Of a stretch of 56,476 nt of DNA, positions 41,306 through 52,114 are shown in pieces. The number at the start of each line of letters is the position of its first letter. Within the stretch, counting starts at the first letter, position 1. The notes beneath the pieces are model-generated. The model worked only from the letters and a program-made list of their open reading frames with translations. It searched no databases and was not told where the DNA came from. The DNA is from a virus. Lineage: Duplodnaviria > Caudoviricetes. Made by a program: the position numbers and the translations under genes. The stretch spans positions 1 through 56,476 of the IMG/VR virus record IMGVR_UViG_3300028802_000186; one strand, 5' to 3'.

Positions 41306-42034
41306 ATGCCACGCCAGAAGCGCAGCAACGACCACAGCCGTTCGCCCGAGGTGCTCGACGCCCTGGAGCGCCGCAAGATCGAAATCGATCCGCTGCTTGA
41401 CGCCTGGGCGCAGCAGCCCGGAGAGACGCCACGCAACTACGGCCTCTTCCTGATGTACCGGGACTATGGCCGGATCCGCACCGTCGCGCAGATCGCCACC
41501 ATGTCCCCGATCAGCTTCGCGGCCACCGCCCGGGTCGCCCGCTACAACCTCTGGGTAGAGCGCGCCGGACGGTGGGACGCCGAGCAGGACCGTATCGCCG
41601 GTATCCGACTCCAGGACGCCCGCGAGGAGATGGCCCGCACTCACTCCAAGGCCGCCCGCGCCCTGATGAAGAAGGCCCTGGAGCGGCTGGAAACCCTCGA
41701 CGTCGACTCGATCAGCCCCCACGCCCTGGTGCTGATGCTCGACACCGCCGCCCGCATCGAACGCGCCGCGCTGGGTCTCGAAGTGCTCAACAAGGGTGCC
41801 AGCTCGCAGACCTCCGTCACCGTGGCCGCCACCGCCAAGACCGACGCCGCCGGTAAGTCGGAGGTGCGTGTGGAGGTCGGCGTGCAGCACGACAACATCA
41901 TGAAGACCCTGGACGCGATGGTGCAGCGCATGAGCCCTGAGCAGATCGCCGCCGGATATCAGGAGCTGACCGCGAGCGCGGAGGAGGCGACTCGCGAGCT
42001 GGACGCCGCCCTTCCTGCACCTCCTCCGCAGTGA
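41306..42034 (+). CDS. Terminase small subunit-like protein
   Basis: W.QQPGET...F..YRD.G..RT...WVERA..WD; precedes large subunit. Confidence 0.7.
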   Translation: MPRQKRSNDHSRSPEVLDALERRKIEIDPLLDAWAQQPGETPRNYGLFLMYRDYGRIRTVAQIATMSPISFAATARVARYNLWVERAGRWDAEQDRIAGIRLQDAREEMARTHSKAARALMKKALERLETLDVDSISPHALVLMLDTAARIERAALGLEVLNKGASSQTSVTVAATAKTDAAGKSEVRVEVGVQHDNIMKTLDAMVQRMSPEQIAAGYQELTASAEEATRELDAALPAPPPQ

Positions 42035-42197: not shown

Positions 42198-43655
42198 ATG
42201 AGCCTGTCTGCCGCGCAGAAGCTGGCCCTGCTCCCGGCCGCGCTGCGTCGTCGCTGGCTACAGGGCCAGACCCGCGAAACGCTGGAGGACATCCAGAAGG
42301 GCGCCTGGTGGTGGCTCGGCCGCCCGGAGCAGTTCCGCCCTCCCGGCGACTGGCTTGTCTGGCTGATCCGCTCCGGCCGTGGCTGGGGCAAGACCCGCAC
42401 CGGCGCCGAAGACCTCCTCGACCGCCTGTTCCGCCACCCCGTGGACGCCTTCGGCCAGCGCACCGAATGGCTGGTCGTCGCCGAGACCCTCAACGACTGC
42501 CGCACGGCGTGCATCGAGGGCAACTCGGGCCTGCTGACCGTGCTGCGCCGTATGGGCATGGAGAATCACCGGGACTTCGAATACCGCAAGAGCCCCAAGC
42601 TGATGATCGAGTTCCGGTCTGGCCAGATCATCTACTTCGAGGGCGCCGACAACGACGACGTCGGCCGTGGCTACAACGCCGCCGGGGCCTGGCTCGACGA
42701 GCTGGCCAAGTGGCGTTACACCTGGGGCGCCTGGTTCGAGGGCATCCTCCCGTCGATGCGCGCCCCGCTGATCGACGACCGTCCCCGCGTGGTGGTCACC
42801 ACCACCCCGAAGCCGATCAAGCTGCTGATCAAGTGGCAGCACGAGACCGACGGCACCGTCGTCATCACCACCGGCTCAATCTTCGACAACATCGCCAACC
42901 TCTCCCGCGAGGTCGTCGAAGAGCTCAAGAAGATCTACGAGGGCACCCGGGCCGGACTCCAGGAGCTGTACGGCCACCTCCTGGAGGACATCGAGGGCGC
43001 CTTGTGGAACCGGGCCATGATCGAAAACAATCGCATAAAGCCCGCCGAGCTGCCTGAACTGAAGACCGTCGTCATCTCCATGGACCCCGGCGCCACCGGC
43101 GCAGGCGACGAAACCGGCCTGCTCGCCGCCGGACGCGGCTACAACGGCGACGACTACGTGCTAGCCGACTGGACCAAGAAGATCGTCGGCCACGCCGCCG
43201 CCCGCCGCGCCTGGGAGATGTTCCTCCGCTACGACGCCACCTGGCTGATCATCGAAACGAACATGGGCAAAAAATGGCTCATGCAGGTCGTCACCGACGC
43301 CTACGCCGAGATGCAGAAGGAGCACGCCCCCGGCTGTACTGACGAGGACTGCAAGGGCTGCCTGTTCCCGCCCGGACCCCCGCCGGTCAAGGAGGTCACC
43401 TCCCTCGCGGGCAAGAAGCTGCGCGCCGAACCGGTCGCCTCCCGCTACGAGCAGAACCGCTGGCACCACGTCGGCACCTTCATCGAGCTGGAGGACCAGT
43501 GCTGCACGTGGGTGCCCGAAGATGCCAAGTCCCCCGACCGCATCGACGCCCTCGTGCAGGCCGGACTGTTCCTCATGGGCAAGGAGAAGGGGCTCGTGCG
43601 TGTCGCCGCCCCCTCGGCCGACGCGTACATGCCGGTCAGCTCCCCGTACGGCTAG
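42198..43655 (+). CDS. terL: Terminase large subunit
   Basis: SGRGWGKT Walker A, WLDE Walker B, TTTPK, SMDP nuclease, SPDRIDA. Confidence 0.95.
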   Translation: MSLSAAQKLALLPAALRRRWLQGQTRETLEDIQKGAWWWLGRPEQFRPPGDWLVWLIRSGRGWGKTRTGAEDLLDRLFRHPVDAFGQRTEWLVVAETLNDCRTACIEGNSGLLTVLRRMGMENHRDFEYRKSPKLMIEFRSGQIIYFEGADNDDVGRGYNAAGAWLDELAKWRYTWGAWFEGILPSMRAPLIDDRPRVVVTTTPKPIKLLIKWQHETDGTVVITTGSIFDNIANLSREVVEELKKIYEGTRAGLQELYGHLLEDIEGALWNRAMIENNRIKPAELPELKTVVISMDPGATGAGDETGLLAAGRGYNGDDYVLADWTKKIVGHAAARRAWEMFLRYDATWLIIETNMGKKWLMQVVTDAYAEMQKEHAPGCTDEDCKGCLFPPGPPPVKEVTSLAGKKLRAEPVASRYEQNRWHHVGTFIELEDQCCTWVPEDAKSPDRIDALVQAGLFLMGKEKGLVRVAAPSADAYMPVSSPYG

Positions 43656-43665
43656 GATGGACACC

Positions 43666-44060
43666 ATGAGGCAGCACGCTCTACAGGGCGGGTCTTGCTA
43701 AGCCGGGAGAATCGACCCCGCCCTGAACCCGCACTCGTACCGGCAATCCCTGCAACCCCGGATAGACTGCCCGGCGGAGATGATCCAGCGCGGCCCCTGG
43801 CCTAGCGGATCGGCAACCGGGATGAAGCGCGGCAGTGCCGCGACACTCAAGACGCCCCGACTACCCCGTGAGGGGCTCGGGGCGTTCCCATGTCCGGGTA
43901 AGGGGAAAGGCCCGGCCCCACGGGGGGAGGACCGGGCCTTTCCGTCTATGCGACGGTGGAACGTGATAGCCCCTCCGGTGGCATCGGAAGGGCTATCGTT
44001 TGCCATGCGCTTGCCCGGAAGAGCGATCAGACCCTCAGGCGTTTGCGCAGGTCGGTCGAC
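43666..44060 (+). ncRNA. Candidate structured non-coding RNA downstream of terL
   Basis: TAGGAT -10-like at 43653; four strong hairpins (43684-43725, 43852-43885, 43904-43943, 43965-43997); no credible ORF. Confidence 0.4.
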
Positions 44061-44082
44061 TAGAGGGGCTCCAGGGCCGATG

Positions 44083-44355
44083 CTACCGCCGTCTCCGCGA
44101 GCGCCGCAAACGTGCCAGCCGCTTCGCCCGCACGTCCTTCAGTCGGGCGATCAGCTCGGACACGGCGGCGCCGTCCAGCACGCTGAAGGTGCGGATGGTG
44201 GCGGTGCGCTCCGCGTAGGGCAGCTCGGTGCGGCAGAGGTCCATGGCGAAACGGATCTGCTCCCGGCTCGGCGGTGCCGGTGGCCGCCGCCACGGGTTGA
44301 CCGTCGGCAGCTCGAACGCTTCCTTCTCCTGTACCTGCGTGCCCATCTCGCCCAC
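44083..44355 (-). CDS. Hypothetical protein
   Basis: PSREQIRFA.DL...VSELIARL; GGAGGAGG upstream. Confidence 0.65.
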   Translation of the reverse strand: MGEMGTQVQEKEAFELPTVNPWRRPPAPPSREQIRFAMDLCRTELPYAERTATIRTFSVLDGAAVSELIARLKDVRAKRLARLRRSRRRR

Positions 44356-44449
44356 CTCCGTCGGGTTCCTCCTCCTTCACCTTCCAGGGTCCCCGATGAC
44401 CGGCGTATGTCAAGCGTGAATCTACGCACTCCCAATCGTCTATCCGGGG

Positions 44450-44478
44450 TTGACAGGCGCTCCACCTCGGACTAACGT
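44450..44478 (+). promoter_or_regulatory. Strong sigma-70-type promoter for the small-gene/tRNA-like operon
   Basis: TTGACA-N17-TAACGT; a second TTGACA on minus strand at 44408-44413. Confidence 0.78.
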
Positions 44479-44513
44479 GGAACACGACAGACCGACCAGG
44501 GAGGATGTGCCAA

Positions 44514-44717
44514 ATGGCGACTTGGACCGCAGGTCAGATCGGAAAAAGCGGCGGGGCCTACTCGGGTAGCAAGGTGTCGTTCAGCCTCGGTGGCGAAACC
44601 ATCGAGGGAACTCTCACCCGCTCCGACCACACCACGGACGGCAGTGACCACGCCTACCTCACGGTTGACGGCGTGTGGCGCTCCGTTCCTGCCGCCGTCC
44701 CGGTCGAGGTGTCCTGA
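44514..44717 (+). CDS. Hypothetical protein (SH3-like)
   Basis: GGAGG RBS; beta-rich 67 aa (alternative start 44505). Confidence 0.6.
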   Translation: MATWTAGQIGKSGGAYSGSKVSFSLGGETIEGTLTRSDHTTDGSDHAYLTVDGVWRSVPAAVPVEVS

Positions 44718-45070
44718 TGGACGCAGGGATCGCCGACACGCTCAACCGCCACGCCGTGCAGCTGATGGTCGGCCAGCTCGACCGCGTCGACATCGACCTG
44801 TGCGCCACCGAGGAAGGCCCGTGGTATCGCGTCAGCCTCGCCGACACGCTCATGGGCACCAACGACGCGACCAACGCCGACCGCGCCTGGCTCGTCGGCA
44901 TCATCGCCCACGCGACCCCCGGCCTCGACTTCGACGGGCACCCGGCCGACTGCGACTGGGACAACCTGTTCAGCCACTTCCGGGCCGAGATCCTGGCCCG
45001 GCGTGACCCGCAATCCCATCCTGCGCGCGCGGCAGAGATCCCCGCGCGGGATGGTGTAGGGTCACGGTAG
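44717..45070 (+). CDS. Hypothetical protein
   Basis: TGATG overlap. Confidence 0.6.
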   Translation: MDAGIADTLNRHAVQLMVGQLDRVDIDLCATEEGPWYRVSLADTLMGTNDATNADRAWLVGIIAHATPGLDFDGHPADCDWDNLFSHFRAEILARRDPQSHPARAAEIPARDGVGSR

Positions 45071-45072
45071 AC

Positions 45073-45169
45073 GGAGGGGACCGGGGCAGGCCCCACGCCT
45101 CCTTCGGTCTGTCAACCCGAGCGGGTGGCCCCCCGCCCGCTCGGGAGGTCGGGCCACCCGGTCCCCTCC
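45073..45169 (+). other. Nested stem-loop element
   Basis: GGAGGGGACCGG / CCGGTCCCCTCC enclosing CCCGAGCGGG / CCCGCTCGGG. Confidence 0.6.
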
Positions 45170-45204
45170 CCCGCCCGAGTTATGCACAGCCTGAGGAGAA
45201 ACCT

Positions 45205-45405
45205 GTGGATCTGGTCCTGCACCGCGTCGACGGCCGTAACCGTCTCAACCTGGACGGTGTCGTCGCGCCTGGCGTGGAGTTCTACACCGCCGAGGTGGAA
45301 GAGACGGACGACGACCACATCCCGACCGGACGCATCATCCTGTCGCCGGTGAAGGTCGCCACGACCGCAGTCAAGCGCACCGCCGAGGCCGAGCCCGACG
45401 CCTAA
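45205..45405 (+). CDS. AbrB/MazE-like swapped-hairpin protein
   Basis: VDGRNRLNL...GRIILSPV; GAGGAG RBS. Confidence 0.55.
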   Translation: MDLVLHRVDGRNRLNLDGVVAPGVEFYTAEVEETDDDHIPTGRIILSPVKVATTAVKRTAEAEPDA

Positions 45406-45425
45406 ACCCCAGAAGGGGAGAGAAC

Positions 45426-45620
45426 GTGAAACGCCTGTTCGGCAAGATTACGAACCGCATCATCGGAGGAGAAATCCCCCACGACGCCGTGTTCCCCGCC
45501 AAGCGCCCCGGCGCCGCGCCGCCCACCTCCGCAGCCATCAGGGCTGCCGAAGGCCACGGGCTCGGCCGGGGAGCCACCCGCAAGCGCTCCGGCCCCGGCG
45601 CCCGCGCATCGGAAGACTGA
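45426..45620 (+). CDS. Small basic hypothetical protein
   Basis: GGGGAG RBS; 64 aa. Confidence 0.55.
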   Translation: MKRLFGKITNRIIGGEIPHDAVFPAKRPGAAPPTSAAIRAAEGHGLGRGATRKRSGPGARASED

Positions 45621-45672
45621 AAGCCCTCCCTGGCTCTGACCGGCGGCCAGGGGTGATTCACCGGCCGGTCAC

Positions 45673-45775
45673 GGGGAGATAGCTCAACAGGCAGAGCGAT
45701 CCCGCTTCCGCAGCGGAGGGTTACGACTCGCGCGCGGTAGGGATATAGATGCAGGTTCAAGTCCTGCTCTCCCCT
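45673..45775 (+). ncRNA. tRNA-like element 1 (36-nt insert in anticodon loop)
   Basis: Acceptor GGGGAGA/TCTCCCC; D GCTC/GAGC; ATCCC/GGGAT enclosing 36 nt; T GCAGG-TTCAAGT-CCTGC. Confidence 0.8.
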
Positions 45776-45943
45776 CGACCGAAAGTGCTTCGTGGACGGC
45801 CTGATATGGCCGTGACGTCCACCAGAGGTCGCGCATGAGGAGGGCCCGCTCTCCACCGCCGGGCCAGATGCACCCGGCAGGTAACAGGAACGGCAGGGCA
45901 ACGCCTAGCGGGTCGACACGCGAAGCGGAAGAGCGCCGTACCC

Positions 45944-46013
45944 GCCACGTAGCTCAGATGGCCAGAGCTGGGGCCCTAAGCCCTGAGTCGGAGGTTCGAA
46001 TCCTCCCGTGGCA
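45944..46013 (+). ncRNA. tRNA-like element 2 (5-nt loop CCUAA)
   Basis: Acceptor GCCACG/CGTGGC (6 bp); D GCTC/GAGC; GGGGC/GCCCT; T GGAGG-TTCGAAT-CCTCC. Confidence 0.82.
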
Positions 46014-46334
46014 CGGAAGACGCACCGGGGCACCGGGTGCGACACCCCACGCAACACCCACAGGTGCAAGCGCTGGACGACGCCCCCACGCCTCGGGGGA
46101 TGAGGCCCAGTTCGGCGCGACGGCCGCTAGATGACCCGGGACATACTCCGGGCGGCCGGGATCGGGCAGCGTCCCGCAAGGGGTACGGCCGTACGGCTGC
46201 TGGGCTTCAATGCCACCGATCCGCGCGAAGGAACGACGAGGACGACCTGTCCCGCAAGGCCCTTGGCCCCCTGCATGGACCTGTCGACTGCTCACCTCGC
46301 CGCTAACCGACGCCCTCGCCCTGAGCAAGCGAGG

Positions 46335-46408
46335 GACGCTGTAGCTCACCCTGGATAGAGCGTCCGCCTCACGGCGGGAGGATGGCGGTTCGAATCCGTC
46401 CAGCGTCA
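46335..46408 (+). ncRNA. tRNA-like element 3 (6-nt loop CUCACG)
   Basis: Acceptor GACGCTG/CAGCGTC; TCCGC/GCGGG; T GGCGG-TTCGAAT-CCGTC. Confidence 0.82.
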
Positions 46409-46609
46409 CGGAGGCAGCCATGCCTAGCCGACATGCCCGCCGGGGCTCAGCCCAAGCGAAAAATGGCACCCGCCCCAGCCCGGGAGACGAACCCTGGCAC
46501 ACGGACGGGAGCACGAGGTAACAGGAAAGGCCAGCACGGGCCCGCCTCCTGAGGCATCAGGACATAGGTGAGCCGCCGTATGGGTGGATACCCGGACTGG
46601 CCAAGTACC

Positions 46610-46676
46610 GCCGTGAAGCTCTGGAGGTGGGCGCCCCCTAACCCGGGGAAGACGGGGTTCGACTCCCCGCACGGCA
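46610..46676 (+). ncRNA. tRNA-like element 4 (4-bp stem, loop CUAACCC)
   Basis: Acceptor GCCGTG/CACGGC (6 bp); D GCTC/GGGC; CCCC/GGGG; T CGGGG-TTCGACT-CCCCG. Confidence 0.78.
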
Positions 46677-46931
46677 CGAGGTGACCACCTGCTCCATACG
46701 TGAGGGGACCGGGAACAAAAGCGGCTAGAACCGCCTCAAGCCCGGCACGACGTACGGGCAGGCCGACGGGACCTCTGACACCCCGGAGAGACGGGGCGCG
46801 GACCGCCTAGCGTTATCGGCGGGCGGCGCTGGCATAGAGGCCAGCTGATCGAGGGGGTGTGGTGGTGCCGGGTGAGCCGGTGAACCAAGCAGTCCACGAC
46901 CCGCCCACCCCCTCGATTGACAACTGAACAC

Positions 46932-47031
46932 GCCCCGACGGTAAGCGGATCGAGCGCACGCCCTGCGCGCCGTCGCCCGGCAAAGCCAGCCCGCTGAGGG
47001 GTGGCGAGGTGGTTCGAGTCCACCAGGGGCA
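46932..47031 (+). ncRNA. tRNA-like element 5 (5-nt loop, branched ~40-nt variable arm)
   Basis: GCCCC/GGGGC; D CGGT/ATCG; GCGCA-CGCCC-TGCGC; T GGTGG-TTCGAGT-CCACC. Confidence 0.65.
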
Positions 47032-47220
47032 CGGATGCAGAGGAACACCGTGGCGGGCCTACCCGTCCAGGACCTCTGCTGTCGCCCTCCCTGGGCCGCC
47101 GCACGTTGACCAAGCAGGGGAGGACGGCGGGTCGCCGGGATGCACCGAGGGAATCTCCCGTGGCCACGGCGTGGATTCGTGTCCCGGCGACCTACCACAT
47201 ATCCACACGAGGAGGACAAA

Positions 47221-47358
47221 ATGGGCTGGCCGTTCGGGCGGAAGCAGCCGCGCGTCGACAAGGCTGGCAGGGTCACCACCCCGCCGTTGCAGCAGCAGAA
47301 GCCGAAGTACGGGGACAAGAAGATCGTCAAGGCCGTCAAGCCGAAGAAGGGCAAGTGA
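47221..47358 (+). CDS. Small Lys-rich peptide (45 aa) inside RNA island
   Basis: GAGGAGG RBS; MGWPFGRKQPR...KIVKAVKPKKGK. Confidence 0.7.
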   Translation: MGWPFGRKQPRVDKAGRVTTPPLQQQKPKYGDKKIVKAVKPKKGK

Positions 47359-47458
47359 CGGCGACCAAGCCGAAGCCTCGCCCCCGGCCGATCCTCAATC
47401 CGAACCACGGCCGGTGATGCTGCAGGCCAGCACGTAACGGCGCGACGTTTTCGATCAT

Positions 47459-47532
47459 GGACCAGTAGCTCAACGGGAGAGCCGCGCCGCGAAGGCGAAG
47501 ATGAGGGTTTGTTCAAGTCCCCTCCTGGTCCC
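47459..47532 (+). ncRNA. tRNA-like element 6 (5-nt loop GCGAA, bulged T arm)
   Basis: Acceptor GGACCAG/CTGGTCC; D GCTC/GAGC; CGCC/GGCG; GAGGG-TTTG-TTCAAGT-CCCCTC. Confidence 0.75.
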
Positions 47533-47664
47533 GATCCCCGGCGCCCTGGCTGACGCCCCGGGGATGTTGTTGACCCTGCCGTGCGCTGGGCGCAGAACGC
47601 GGTCCATCGTGGCTCACGGGCGTTGTGATGGTGTCCGAATGCGTACCTCCACGGCAGGGTTCCA

Positions 47665-47735
47665 GGCGAGGTAGCTCAACAGGCAGAGCACCGGCGCCAA
47701 GCCGGGGGATGCAGGTTCGACTCCTGCCCTCGCCG
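47665..47735 (+). ncRNA. tRNA-like element 7 (5-nt loop GCCAA, Trp-like)
   Basis: Acceptor GGCGAGG/CCTCGCC, G discriminator; CCGGC/GCCGG; T GCAGG-TTCGACT-CCTGC. Confidence 0.82.
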
Positions 47736-47800
47736 CTCGTCCCTTCCGGGTGGACGCAGCCCGGATCAGCGCGTAAGCTGAGGACTGACAGAAAGACCCG

Positions 47801-48538
47801 ATGGAGGAGATCGTCGTGCAGCACCCGAACCCGAGCGACGCCTGGACCGACTGGCTCGCCGCCAACGACCTCGCCGACGAGGCCGACAAGCTCACCGCGC
47901 TGCACGAGATCATCGTGCGGACCGCCCGCGACCAGGTGAGAAACGAAACCTACAGCCGCATCACCGCCGAATGGGCCAACAAGAAGCTGGCCAAGCTGGG
48001 CATCCCCGACCGGATCGGCGTGCGCAACTCGTACGTCATCGAGGCGCCCATCTCCGGCACGATCCGGCTCCCGGTCGGTGCCGCCAACCGGACCGCCGCC
48101 CTCGCGCTGTTCGAGTCGCGCGTGACCAATGCGGCCTCCTGGGAGGTCTCCGCCCTTGTCGTCCAGGGCGCCCCGGTCTTCGCGTCCGGCCCCGCCGACG
48201 AGGACCCGAACGTGGTGGACCCGGACGTGCCGACCACCGTGCAGGGCACCTTGGACATGCTGCGCGAGATCATCATGCTGGGCCACATTGCCGGTCCTAA
48301 GTACTGCGAAGACGAGGCAAACGACGTCCTCGCGAGCTTCGGCCTGGCGCCGATCCCGCCGCGCAAGAAGTTCACCGTCACCCGGCCCGTGACGGCCGAG
48401 ATGTCCACGACCGTGGATGCGTACGACGAGGAGTCGGCGGGGCGCGTGGCGGCCTGGCGCTGGGCCGACGGCCGGGGCGGATACAACCTGGCCAACGTCG
48501 ACCCCACCGACGAGCTGACCGTGACTGCGGCTGCCTGA
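47801..48538 (+). CDS. Hypothetical protein with two internal repeats
   Basis: WANKKLAKLGIPD and EANDVLASFGLAP repeated units. Confidence 0.75.
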   Translation: MEEIVVQHPNPSDAWTDWLAANDLADEADKLTALHEIIVRTARDQVRNETYSRITAEWANKKLAKLGIPDRIGVRNSYVIEAPISGTIRLPVGAANRTAALALFESRVTNAASWEVSALVVQGAPVFASGPADEDPNVVDPDVPTTVQGTLDMLREIIMLGHIAGPKYCEDEANDVLASFGLAPIPPRKKFTVTRPVTAEMSTTVDAYDEESAGRVAAWRWADGRGGYNLANVDPTDELTVTAAA

Positions 48539-48546
48539 CCCGAGCC

Positions 48547-48600
48547 CATACAGCCCCCTTGCCCCGCCAGGCAAGGGGGCTGTATGCTGTGCGTAGACAG
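48547..48600 (+). promoter_or_regulatory. Hairpin overlapping promoter and operator-like motif upstream of macrodomain gene
   Basis: 17-bp inverted repeat CATACAGCCCCCTTGCC; TTGCCC-N18-TATGCT; TGTATGC-N5-GTAGACA. Confidence 0.68.
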
Positions 48601-48615
48601 ATCGAGGAGGACACC

Positions 48616-49245
48616 ATGACCGAAACCATCGCCGCCGCCGTTGCCATCCTGGCCCTGGCCGCTCTTGCCGCCCTGATGCTGGCCGCCAGCACTGGCCTGC
48701 CGTTCCGCGTCCGTCACCGGCCCGCCCTGCGGATCGAGGTCGTGATCGGCGACATCACCACCCAGCGCGTGGACGTCATCGTCAACGCCGCCAAGTCCAG
48801 CCTGCTCGGGGGCGGCGGGGTGGACGGGGCGATCCACCAGGCGGGCGGACCGGCCATCCTGCGAGAGTGCCGCGACCTGCGCGCCCGCCAGTACCCCGGC
48901 GGGCTGCCCGCCGGTCAGGCCGCGTTGACCGGCGCTGGGCGCCTGCCCGCCGAGCACGTCATCCACACCGTCGGCCCCATGTACGACCCGTTCGTCGACC
49001 AGTCGGCCATCCTGCGCAGCTGCTACACCGAGTCGCTGGCCCGCGCCGACGAGGTCGGCGCCCGCACGGCCGCCTTCCCGCTGATCTCTGCCGGGGTGTA
49101 CGGCTGGCCCAAGGACGACGCGGTCAGGCAGGCTCTGGCGGCGCTGCGCACCGCGAGCACGAGGGTGAAGACCGTACGGCTGGTCATGTTCGACGAGGGC
49201 ACCTACCGCACCGCCCTGGCCGTCGATTCGCTGGAGGATTTCTGA
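48616..49245 (+). CDS. YmdB-like macrodomain (ADP-ribose/O-acetyl-ADP-ribose hydrolase) with N-terminal hydrophobic anchor
   Basis: GDIT...IVNAAKSSLLGGGGVDGAIH...VIHTVGP...AFPLISAGVYG. Confidence 0.92.
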   Translation: MTETIAAAVAILALAALAALMLAASTGLPFRVRHRPALRIEVVIGDITTQRVDVIVNAAKSSLLGGGGVDGAIHQAGGPAILRECRDLRARQYPGGLPAGQAALTGAGRLPAEHVIHTVGPMYDPFVDQSAILRSCYTESLARADEVGARTAAFPLISAGVYGWPKDDAVRQALAALRTASTRVKTVRLVMFDEGTYRTALAVDSLEDF

Positions 49246-50158: not shown

Positions 50159-52114
50159 ATGGGGCTGCTGACCCGTAAGGCCAAGCTCGTGCCCGCCGGT
50201 GGGCAGGACGGCCCGGGAACGCGACCTGCCGCCCTGACCGCCGCCGCCGTACCCATCAACCTGGGCGACGCCGCCTCCTGGCAGATGTTCAAGCTCGGCG
50301 ACCACCGCTGGCAGTGGGAGGCCTGGCGCCACTACGACATCTGCGGGGAGATGCGTTTCGTCGTCAACTGGATGGGCAACAGCATCTCCCGCTGCCGCAT
50401 GTACGCGGCGCAGATCACCGACGATGGGGTGGTCGGTGACGAGGTCGAAGACCCCCGCGTGAAGATGATCGCCGAAACCATGTTCGGCACCCCGGCCGCG
50501 AAAGCGCAGGCCCAGCGCCTGATGGGCATCAACATGATGACCGCCGGGGATTGCTTCATCGTCGCCGAGGGGTACCGGTCCGCCCAGGACGGCGAGGTCG
50601 GCACCGACAAGTGGTACGTATGCTCCTCGTCCGAGGTGTACCGGCGCGGTGACGACATCATGGTTCGCCGTTCCATCACCCACGGCGGCGGCACGTACAA
50701 GCTGGACAAGGCCAAGGATCTGCTGATCCGGTGCTGGAATCCGCATCCGCGCCGCCATGACGCCGCCGACTCCACCGTGCGGGCCATCCTGCCGGTGCTG
50801 CGGGAGCTGGAGCAGTGCACGAAGCGGGTGTTCGCCGAGCTTGACTCCCGCCTGGCCGGTGCCGGGATCCTGCTGCTGCCGGACAACATCGACTTCCCGC
50901 GTCCGCCGCAGGAGACGCCCAATGTGCCGCAGCGTTCCGGGGTGGAGGGCTTCGCGGACTTGTTGCAGAGGACGATGGCTACGTCGATGCAGCAGCGCGA
51001 CAACGCTGCCGCCGTGGTGCCGATCATCTTGCAGGTGGCGGTCGACGCCCTCGACAAGATCAAACACTTGACGTTCGATTCGACCATCTCCGAGCATATC
51101 TCCCAAATGCGCAAGGACGCCGTGGCCCGCATGGCGATGTCGCTGGACATTCCGCCCGAGGTGCTGACCGGCATGGGCGGCTCGAACCACTGGTCGAGCT
51201 GGCAGATCGAAGAGTCCTCGATCAAGATCCACATCGAGCCGCTGCTGATCCAGCTCGCCGACGCCCTCAACATCGGCTACTTCCAGCCCGCCCTCAAGGC
51301 CGCAGGCATCCCGAACCCGGAGAAGATGACCCTCTGGTTCGACATCGCCGCCCTCACCGTACGGCCCAACCGCTCCGAGCAGGCCATGCAGTTCGCCGAA
51401 AAGGAGTACATCTCCGCCGAGGCCGCCCGCAAGAACGCCGCCTTCACCGAGGACGACGCCCCCAAGAAGGCGGAGCTGGTCTACAACATCACCAAGGCCC
51501 TGGTCCTGGCGCAGCCCGCCTACGCGGGCGACCCGGAGGTGCAGAAGATCCTCGGCCTGCCCAACATCCAGATGCCCGCCCCGGCCGCTCCCCCGGCGCC
51601 GCCCGGAGACCTGATGCCCGGCGACCCCGGCTATGACACGGCCGGTAGCGAACCGGCAGATGTGGGTGCTCGCGGCCTGCCGCAGTTCCCGTCCGTCGCC
51701 GAAGCGGAGTCCGGCGCCGTCCCAGGCAAGGGCCAGAAGCTGGCGGCCCTGGCGGCTTCCGCCCTGAAGCCCCTCGGTGACGCCGCCCTGTTCTACGCCG
51801 CCGACGCCGCCGTGCGCCGCGCCTTGGAGCTGGCCGGTGGCCGCCTCGTCGCGGGGCCGCAGCGCACCCGGTACGGCGTGCCGAAGCACGAGCTGCACAC
51901 CCAGGTCGTCCCGGACCGGTCCCGCGTGCCCGCTCTGCTGGCCGGAGCCTGGACTCACGCCCGCGACCAGGCTCTCGCCCTAGGTGTCGACCCGGACGCG
52001 CTGGAGGAGCTTCTGGGCGGCTACTGCACGGAGCTGCTGACCCGGGGCGTCCCGCATGAGGCGGGTCTGCTGCGGGCCACGCTGCACCAGGCACGAGGAG
52101 ACCTGAAGTCATGA
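50159..52114 (+). CDS. Portal protein
   Basis: WQWEAW..YD..GE.RF...SRLAGAGILLLP...PPEVLTG...NHWSSW typical actinophage portal. Confidence 0.9.
   Translation: MGLLTRKAKLVPAGGQDGPGTRPAALTAAAVPINLGDAASWQMFKLGDHRWQWEAWRHYDICGEMRFVVNWMGNSISRCRMYAAQITDDGVVGDEVEDPRVKMIAETMFGTPAAKAQAQRLMGINMMTAGDCFIVAEGYRSAQDGEVGTDKWYVCSSSEVYRRGDDIMVRRSITHGGGTYKLDKAKDLLIRCWNPHPRRHDAADSTVRAILPVLRELEQCTKRVFAELDSRLAGAGILLLPDNIDFPRPPQETPNVPQRSGVEGFADLLQRTMATSMQQRDNAAAVVPIILQVAVDALDKIKHLTFDSTISEHISQMRKDAVARMAMSLDIPPEVLTGMGGSNHWSSWQIEESSIKIHIEPLLIQLADALNIGYFQPALKAAGIPNPEKMTLWFDIAALTVRPNRSEQAMQFAEKEYISAEAARKNAAFTEDDAPKKAELVYNITKALVLAQPAYAGDPEVQKILGLPNIQMPAPAAPPAPPGDLMPGDPGYDTAGSEPADVGARGLPQFPSVAEAESGAVPGKGQKLAALAASALKPLGDAALFYAADAAVRRALELAGGRLVAGPQRTRYGVPKHELHTQVVPDRSRVPALLAGAWTHARDQALALGVDPDALEELLGGYCTELLTRGVPHEAGLLRATLHQARGDLKS

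Follow-up and report, generated by a model that had tools for sequence, protein, structure and literature searches.

A probable family of phage RNAs in which a structured leader runs into a non-decoding tRNA-like domain

Between the terminase and portal genes of an uncultured tailed phage (IMG/VR record IMGVR_UViG_3300028802_000186; Duplodnaviria, Caudoviricetes), a short sequence module occurs twice, each time directly ahead of an element that resembles a tRNA. The locus raises the question of whether module and tRNA-like element belong together as one kind of RNA and, if so, what the module does. The window analyzed here is the whole 56,476-bp viral record, rated 99% complete, and coordinates without a contig name refer to its + strand. 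The two copies very probably represent a family of phage-encoded, + strand non-coding RNAs that begin with the 11-nt 5′ motif GGUAACAGGAA, continue through an interchangeable insert and close with (A)GUACC, which runs without a spacer into a non-decoding tRNA-like domain. The existence of this family and its fold are well supported, whereas its function is not.

A shared 5′ motif around two interchangeable inserts

In the window, AGGTAACAGGAA is found at 45879–45890 and 46516–46527, with no other match even when one mismatch is allowed. Shuffled versions of the window hold 0.02 matches on average, and two or more copies appeared in 0 of 100 shuffles. The first-pass annotation had described a repeated 5′ module at 45879 and 46516, each copy with its own stem sequence around hairpins, then GTACC and a tRNA-like element, and this description holds for both copies. 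In copy 1, the invariant motif GGUAACAGGAA (45880–45890, preceded by an A) is followed by a short-class insert folded as a rod (45891–45937). Its helices are P2 (45891–45894, CGGC, with 45935–45938, GCCG), P3 (45902–45904 with 45925–45927) and P4 (45908–45910 with 45919–45921), the last closing an 8-nt apical loop (45911–45918) that holds the self-complementary hexamer GUCGAC at 45912–45917. The closing strand GUACC (45938–45942) can pair with GGUA (45880–45883) or GGAAC (45887–45891). It leads to the tRNA-like domain (45943–46015), which has six acceptor pairs (45944–45949 with 46007–46012, GCCACG/CGUGGC), a 5-nt ‘anticodon’ loop, a normal T arm and an A-C-G tail at 46013–46015. This copy is without the 2-nt bulge seen in other members and carries one extra unpaired C (45943) between GUACC and the acceptor. 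In copy 2, the motif (46517–46527) precedes a long-class insert that forms a three-way junction (46528–46603), with P2 (46529–46534, GGCCAG, with 46597–46602, CTGGCC), P3 (46537–46540 with 46591–46594), P4 (46543–46547 with 46566–46570), P5 (46548–46552 with 46557–46561, loop GGCA) and P6 (46573–46577 with 46583–46587). The closing strand AGUACC (46604–46609, with GTACC at 46605–46609) is followed by a tRNA-like domain (46610–46678) with six acceptor pairs (46610–46615 with 46670–46675, GCCGUG/CACGGC), a 6-nt ‘anticodon’ loop and an A-C-G tail at 46676–46678.

The same arrangement recurs in related phages. Twenty-five viral contigs encode a terminase 77–91% identical to that of the window, and in 21 of these [U/A]GGUAACAGGAA lies 2.5–4.4 kb 3′ of the terminase gene, with insert, (A)GUACC and tRNA-like element coming after the motif each time. 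The base before the GG is U, not A, in most relatives; a scan with the exact pattern including the leading A returned 68 stretches, all unrelated (contigs of 32–59% G+C, with similarity that ends with the motif as typed). A scan that did not require a tRNA, using the pattern GGTAACAGGAA-N48-78-AGTACCG, returned 57 stretches, of which 25 are family members (all with at least 66% G+C and all followed by a T loop) and the other 32 are unrelated. A metagenome scan added 23 further family stretches among 28. In total, 38 distinct module variants were collected, 19 short and 19 long, and a tRNA-like element stands behind every one of them. Scans for variants of the outer helix gave no new one: with the anchor in the 3′ part, 11 unrelated stretches came up beside 11 members already known, each of which has the standard 5′ motif, and with the 5′ part combined with the acceptor, 27 unrelated stretches came up beside 9 known members. 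The window and the related contigs L090 and L078 hold two units each. Both classes share one syntenic slot, between conserved blocks at 46280–46410 and 47120–47215; this slot holds other leader-plus-mimic cassettes in L071, L087 and L091 and a hybrid in L074.

Outside these relatives, ten stretches from a scan of a genome collection for prophages and hosts (e.g., in Lachnospiraceae, Bacteroides, Hymenobacter and Rossellomorea) were taken as chance matches from their titles. The DNA search of cultured phages gave only tRNA-like matches of 60–70 nt, and the terminase is at most 37.5% identical to theirs; thus, they include no annotated relative. The 12 sequencing runs that contain the sequence are all of DNA, from soil, root and rhizosphere, and the motif was not described in the papers returned by a keyword-based, non-exhaustive full-text search on phage tRNA-like RNAs. 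As far as the searched collections show, the family is restricted to one uncultured phage group of about 54–59 kb.

The 5′ motif and the closing strand are nearly invariant. Positions 1–5 and 7–11 of GGUAACAGGAA are identical in all 38 variants, position 6 is C in 37, position 12 is either C (24 variants) or A (14), and the preceding base is U in 33. In the closing strand A-G-U-A-C-C, the first A is present in 37 of 38, GUAC in all and the final C in 37. When partners for the 5′ motif were sought within −130/+200 nt, GUACC was the only consistent complement (37/38). GUACC itself has two alternative partners, GGUA (positions 1–4) or GGAAC (positions 8–12, with one A-A mismatch), and the two folds differ by 0.2–4.5 kcal/mol across 27 members. 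Pairing of GTACC back with GGTA, as first proposed, is therefore possible, but GGAAC serves equally well.

Between these strands lie two classes of insert, a rod of ~50 nt with a self-complementary loop and a three-way junction of ~77 nt with a GNRA-type loop, which share no common core beyond the outer motif. For the long class, a covariance model was built from 12 sequences and 15 matches were re-aligned. The model comprises the outer helix, a 6-bp P2, a 2-bp P3, a 5-bp P4 continued by the P5 hairpin, and the P6 hairpin. In the 15 sequences, 97.4% of 345 cells are paired and 13 of 23 pairs have changed on both sides; none of 500 shuffles reaches any of these measures, and pairing falls to only 20–44% of cells in a control in which partners were moved by 1–3 columns. 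A GRCA tetraloop caps P5 in 17 of 19 distinct long modules (GACA in 14 and GGCA in 3, counted by eye). At L080:10443–10523 (42.6 bits), the three-way-junction core of the long class sits inside another outer helix, with neither GGUAACAGGAA nor GUACC, which marks this core as a separable module.

The short class was aligned from 14 sequences, with four helices and the loop ‘pairs’. In this alignment, 99.1% of 224 cells are paired and the covariation score is 0.591 versus 0.180 in shuffles (reached in 0 of 500); 9 of 16 pairs have changed on both sides, a measure that, taken alone, is matched by 20 of 500 shuffles. The 8-nt apical loop consists of G, a self-complementary hexamer and A in all 19 distinct modules, the hexamer being GUCGAC in 8, ACGCGU in 6, AUGCAU in 4 and GUUGAC, self-complementary by G-U wobble, in 1. 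All three symmetric position pairs of the hexamer covary, with 42 of 42 cells kept, and duplexes of 6 bp between hexamers are predicted at −5.4 to −10.3 kcal/mol. Because pairing within a single loop is impossible for the hexamer, and because its symmetry at the DNA level is broken by the conserved G...A flanks, the simplest reading would be that it is under selection for loop-loop pairing between two copies. The marks of a kissing-loop hairpin (a self-complementary hexamer, unpaired purine flanks and compensatory change) are present in 19 of 19 short modules, which places them in a class defined by likeness of presumed action and not by homology. The helices also reveal the strand, as 15 G-U cells would become A-C mismatches on the opposite one. 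The supposition of the first-pass annotation, that a tRNA-like domain is joined here to a purine-rich, conserved motif whose stems covary, is thus borne out across related viral contigs, where the motif recurs upstream of tRNA-like elements and its structure is conserved.

The tRNA-like domain and the fate of the leader

In the domain behind the module, six acceptor pairs are present in 37 of 38 units (five in the remaining one) and are formed by 20 different strand combinations, a full 5-bp T stem is found in 35 and the tail after the acceptor stem is A-C-G in 36 and A-C-C-A in one (L185). The final C of GUACC takes the would-be tRNA position 1 and stands opposite an A, and the closing strand ends where the tRNA-like domain begins in 38 of 38 units. 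Folded alone, five of six bodies form a cloverleaf, and none has a 7-nt anticodon loop, the loops being of 4–6 nt or the arms irregular; Infernal alignment likewise shows a shortened anticodon loop. Neither the seven acceptor pairs of a decoding tRNA nor its anticodon arm with a 5-bp stem and a 7-nt loop is found here; with its non-standard ‘anticodon’ arm, the domain cannot decode. Against the Rfam tRNA model (RF00005, gathering score 29 bits), the copy 1 body reaches 45.6 bits, the copy 2 body goes unmatched at E up to 1, and 3 of 10 module-linked bodies in nine related loci reach the threshold. Leaders and bodies are mixed, with one leader class found on different bodies and one body on both leader classes. 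The six acceptor pairs noted for the two window copies are real, but these are not the only short-acceptor elements of the array, because the element at 46932–47031, behind a different leader, has five. For tmRNA, which carries a tag reading frame and builds its tRNA-like domain from both ends of the RNA, there is no ARAGORN call in the window and no Rfam match in the window or the nine related loci. A permuted tmRNA call by ARAGORN in L077 (4939–5484), spanning a tRNA-like element and its leader, is probably false, because it is seen in 1 of 25 loci only and its tag is atypical.

With regard to the leader, we tentatively hold, at somewhat less than even confidence and from sequence comparison, that the RNA may remain one untrimmed two-domain molecule. 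The closing helix would stack end-on onto the shortened acceptor stem, so that the last four or five leader nucleotides, including the would-be tRNA position 1, would be held in a helix. We infer resistance to RNase P because the six-pair acceptor and a leader paired to the junction, in either fold, recur in every member; both features would be unfavorable for the enzyme, and the leader would stay untrimmed. Sequestering a single-stranded 5′ leader blocks RNase P processing (PMC7897497). The tRNA-like end would then bind host factors that recognize the acceptor/T ‘top half’ of tRNAs, and the leader would supply a second function as an effector or assembly domain, acting through self-association by loop-loop kissing of the palindromic hexamer in the short class and through tertiary or protein contacts in the long class. 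Because the unit lies in a fast-changing cassette array of tRNA mimics, a role in phage–host conflict is suggested, for instance that of a decoy or sponge that captures a tRNA-binding factor. That phages use tRNAs against tRNA-targeting defenses has been proposed in general terms (PMC10264068).

As the main alternative, it is possible, if doubtful, that the tRNA-like element is a processing signal only. RNase P would cut where the closing helix ends and a 3′ nuclease would cut behind A-C-G, by the logic of MALAT1/mascRNA; the leader would be freed as a small stable RNA with its ends locked in the terminal helix, and the tRNA-like piece would be a by-product. The exact meeting of closing strand and tRNA-like domain in all 38 units fits such a cut. 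So do the conserved acceptor and T arms beside degenerate ‘anticodon’ arms (4–6-nt loops; inserts of 44 nt or far longer), a degeneracy to be expected if nothing but recognition by RNase P counts, and several other leaders of the array likewise end in hairpins beside a tRNA-like element. However, neither an acceptor of six pairs nor a leader that is paired throughout suits RNase P well. Moreover, a generic signal would have no obvious need for the short acceptor that marks 38 of 38 module-linked units, whereas module-less neighbors have seven pairs.

Several observations weigh against the reading that the RNA stays untrimmed, and some touch the family model as a whole. The resistance to RNase P would follow from two general statements in the literature, and the end of the closing helix is the exact site expected for RNase P, as the release of the leader would also predict. 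At 46335–46408, a leader hairpin abuts a normal seven-pair acceptor, so an abutting helix need not mean ‘uncut’. The canonical module is missing in 4 of the 25 related phages (one of them with the hybrid). The covariation rests on few independent lineages, as the 14 aligned short sequences fall into two clades and thus hold few independent events. The palindromic loop is confined to the short class, and dimerization therefore cannot be a function of the whole family. The outer helix is invariant and without covariation, so covariation cannot choose between its two competing, nearly isoenergetic pairings. In the divergent L078:5347, GGUAACA is retained unpaired, and a different helix, of 9 bp, follows it and abuts the acceptor; L074:10793 and L092:10597 retain GGUAAC[A/U]GG without a GUACC partner. 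Because of these three cases, the 5′ motif may have a role besides pairing.

The same cases, together with the GCUAACCGACG leader of 46335–46408, tentatively favor the inner helix, in which GGAAC would pair with GUACC and leave GGUAACA as a single-stranded, sequence-specific segment that might be a protein or nuclease site. At 45883–45891 and 46520–46528, the only two variable positions, 6 and 12, fall on third positions within three consecutive adenine-purine-any triplets. Such triplets resemble the type of site bound by Hfq, a speculative parallel. The invariant loop, judged by eye against consensus rules, did not fit a kink-turn, a loop E or a tetraloop receptor.

A more specific form of the untrimmed molecule appears unlikely. 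In it, the short-class RNA would be a head-to-head dimer joined by the retrovirus-style kissing loop and displaying two RNase-P-resistant tRNA mimics, and could act as a bivalent decoy for a dimeric host tRNA-binding enzyme or a tRNA-targeting defense protein, with the long class reaching the same end by a different docking domain.

A maturation switch is quite improbable. Here, the alternative partners of GUACC, or a ligand or protein on the invariant loop, would gate RNase P and time the release of a working tRNA-like RNA. The two pairings are indeed nearly isoenergetic and both 5′ segments are invariant, and a synthetic precedent exists (PMC7897497). However, both helices keep the neighbors of the cleavage site paired and neither state exposes the leader, the body does not decode and no known riboswitch family in Rfam matches. 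An action at the level of DNA, as recombination, packaging or protein-binding sites or as a spreading cassette without RNA function, is very improbable. The position beside packaging genes, the palindromic hexamers and the shuffling of leader and body cassettes, including the hybrid copy in L074, would all fit such an element, but compensatory changes maintain RNA helices, the 15 G-U cells are strand-specific, the conserved G...A mismatch around the hexamer breaks DNA symmetry and the orientation is that of all tRNA-like genes in the array.

Self-cleavage, by which the leader would make the 5′ end of the tRNA-like domain without RNase P and which would fit the catalytic motif suggested by the first-pass annotation, has if anything a slighter claim. 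An invariant purine-rich loop does lie beside the would-be cleavage site, but no ribozyme family of Rfam 15 (hammerhead, twister, pistol, hatchet and HDV-like among them) matches 44000–49000 at E up to 1, and for a catalytic fold it would be unusual that the two insert classes have only the outer motif in common. The inner 7×7 loop of the short class resembles tandem sheared G-A motifs, and a hammerhead was rejected, as there is no third helix. Finally, almost no credence can be given to a Y-RNA-like tether, in which the leader would bind a Ro60-type protein and the tRNA-like domain a second factor: the bipartite layout with a tRNA-like domain recalls Y RNAs, and some actinophages encode Ro60 and YrlA (PMC4201824), but the 56.5-kb, 99%-complete genome has no TROVE domain (which was detected in control genomes), Rfam gives no Y-RNA match at E up to 1, the Ro-binding motif GNCGAAN0-1G occurs in 5 of 38 modules at positions 17–55 and never near the 5′ end, and the topology differs.

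The array between terminase and portal

Outside the module itself, the context is a non-coding array of tRNA-like cassettes with structured leaders (45673–47735, + strand) that lies between the genes for the terminase large subunit (42198–43655) and the portal (50159–52114). The G+C content is 64–71% all along the window, where genes were called by third-position G+C, and 45405–47801 holds no open reading frame (ORF) with a third-codon-position G+C above 0.85. The terminase small subunit is encoded at 41306–42034, a Mu-F-like head protein gene also flanks the non-coding gap on the portal side, and a Macro-domain gene (48559–49245; E = 4.5e-37) lies 3′ of the array. The only informative families among neighboring ORFs are Macro, the terminase small and large subunits, portal, Mu-F-like, ERF and DUF6551. 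The Macro gene and the preceding ORF of 245 codons, which has no family match, are kept in related contigs wherever the locus extends there.

Six tRNA-like elements were listed on the + strand of the array: 45673–45775, with a 44-nt insert in the anticodon arm; 45943–46014, found by ARAGORN and by the Rfam tRNA model (45.6 bits); 46335–46408; 46609–46677, found by ARAGORN only; 47459–47531, which is weak; and 47665–47735 (Trp). At E up to 1, Rfam 15 matched only tRNA in 44000–49000, apart from one sub-threshold mascRNA-menRNA match on the element at 46609–46677 (24.2 bits; gathering score 42.5). Scans of the locus gave 0 promoter-like sites and 3 terminator-like sites versus 2.3 expected, and no CCA-adding (PolyA_pol) or RtcB domain was found in the phage proteins.

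The block at 46280–46410 is the most conserved of the array (25–26 of 30 loci), and the anticodon arm of its tRNA-like element is capped by a loop of 4 nt. Ahead of this element (46335–46408) stands a leader hairpin of 7 bp, which has a conserved 9-nt loop and abuts the normal 7-bp acceptor; a similar GCUAACCGACG stretch lies ahead of this hairpin. At 47129–47195, a 15-bp helix around two small hairpins is followed by UACCA (fold z = −2.5). This element is conserved in ~23 of 30 related loci by blastn and lies directly 5′ of a strong Shine-Dalgarno sequence and an ATG at 47221 (45-codon ORF); it may be a minihelix-type mimic of a tRNA end or a 5′-untranslated-region element.

Other leaders recur as well. 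The region 46847–47031 begins with a different leader, a long hairpin (z = −3.2) with a 14-nt single-stranded linker; the tRNA-like element behind it (46932–47031), with its five acceptor pairs, has a large insert in the D region and the same ACGG tail. L074:10793–10887 is a hybrid of this type of leader and the GGUAACAGG motif. A third recurring family of leader hairpins, with a conserved GGCUGCUGUAGGGCAGUAAGCGCC core, is found at L071 9268–9299 and in L072, L076 and L080, 5′ of other tRNA-like elements. Large inserts in the anticodon region, of 44 nt in 45673–45775 and far longer in L071 (9320–9512) and L087 (11089–11286), might represent introns or else expansion arms, although a group I intron would need more length. 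The recurrent trailer motifs ACGGAUGCA and ACGGAGGCAGCCAUGCCUAGC, found 3′ of tRNA-like elements at 46013–46022, 46407–46428 and 47029–47038 and in related loci, may be 3′-processing signals.

Relation to known RNAs

Phage tRNA genes are now discussed as tools of counter-defense. To our knowledge, almost nothing is known about non-decoding phage tRNA mimics. The family offers a compact test case of 130–165 nt, in which a conserved leader and a tRNA mimic come with a structural model, two interchangeable inner domains and a dimerization-like loop. A leader that keeps RNase P out would amount to a natural version of the designed RNase P switch, whereas release of the leader by the enzyme would make a bacterial virus an example of small RNAs produced by tRNA-like punctuation. 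In both cases there would be a reason for the 2-kb array of ‘broken’ tRNAs that the whole family of phages maintains between packaging genes.

The dimerization-initiation hairpin of retroviruses has a 9-nt loop with a six-base palindrome and unpaired purine flanks, and its palindromes differ by lineage. The short-class loop resembles it in its palindrome with purine flanks and in versions that vary by lineage, but has 8 nt and belongs to a DNA phage, with no function in genome dimerization and a dimer that is predicted only. In gammaherpesvirus tRNA-miRNA chimeras, the tRNA-like part is placed 5′ and serves pol III transcription and RNase Z processing. These RNAs are viral and non-coding as well and connect hairpin modules with a tRNA-like element (PMC4337559), although they come from animal viruses and have no sequence or structural relation to the phage RNA.

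In the synthetic RNase P riboswitch (Ender et al., 2021, PMC7897497), a structured leader sequesters the nucleotides just 5′ of a tRNA and so governs processing by RNase P. Whereas that switch is designed and ligand-controlled, the phage leader is natural, has no known aptamer and stays paired in both folds. ROOL and GOLLD are phage structured RNAs, ‘often near tRNA islands’, that self-assemble by kissing loops and A-minor contacts (Kretsch et al., 10.1101/2024.12.08.627333). The phage RNA is likewise a phage-encoded structured RNA of unknown function near tRNA-like genes. However, it is about ten times smaller and fused to a tRNA-like element, its self-association is predicted only and for the short class only, and the ROOL and GOLLD models of Rfam gave no match in 44000–49000 or the nine related loci. 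With MALAT1/mascRNA, the phage RNA shares a non-decoding tRNA look-alike directly 3′ of a structured RNA whose 3′ end RNase P would define, but the setting is a phage, the match of 24.2 bits lies below the threshold of 42.5, six pairs make up the acceptor and pairing of the leader extends to the junction.

For YrlA, the gene shares its strand with a Ro60 (TROVE) gene no more than about 4 kb away, the motif GNCGAAN0-1G is near the 5′ end of the RNA and the short acceptor is given as the likely reason why RNase P does not cleave it (Chen et al., 2014, PMC4201824). Like YrlA, the phage RNA combines a tRNA-like domain (T arm, D arm and acceptor-like stem) with a second structured module in a non-coding RNA. 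Unlike YrlA, it has no Ro60/TROVE gene nearby, no Rfam match and a Ro-binding motif that is absent or misplaced. Its tRNA-like domain has the ordinary 5′-to-3′ order of arms and open ends where that of YrlA is permuted, and its extra module is a 5′ extension where YrlA builds a helix from both ends. Because there is no Ro60 gene, the phage RNA is not a Y RNA, and the Y-RNA analogy of the first-pass annotation does not extend to membership, the absent Rfam match, the misplaced motif and the ordinary arm order all speaking against it. None of these systems is a homolog of the phage RNA; in how it would work, it comes closest to RNAs that combine a tRNA mimic with a second domain, to cassettes processed through a tRNA-like element and to those phage RNAs near tRNA islands that self-assemble.

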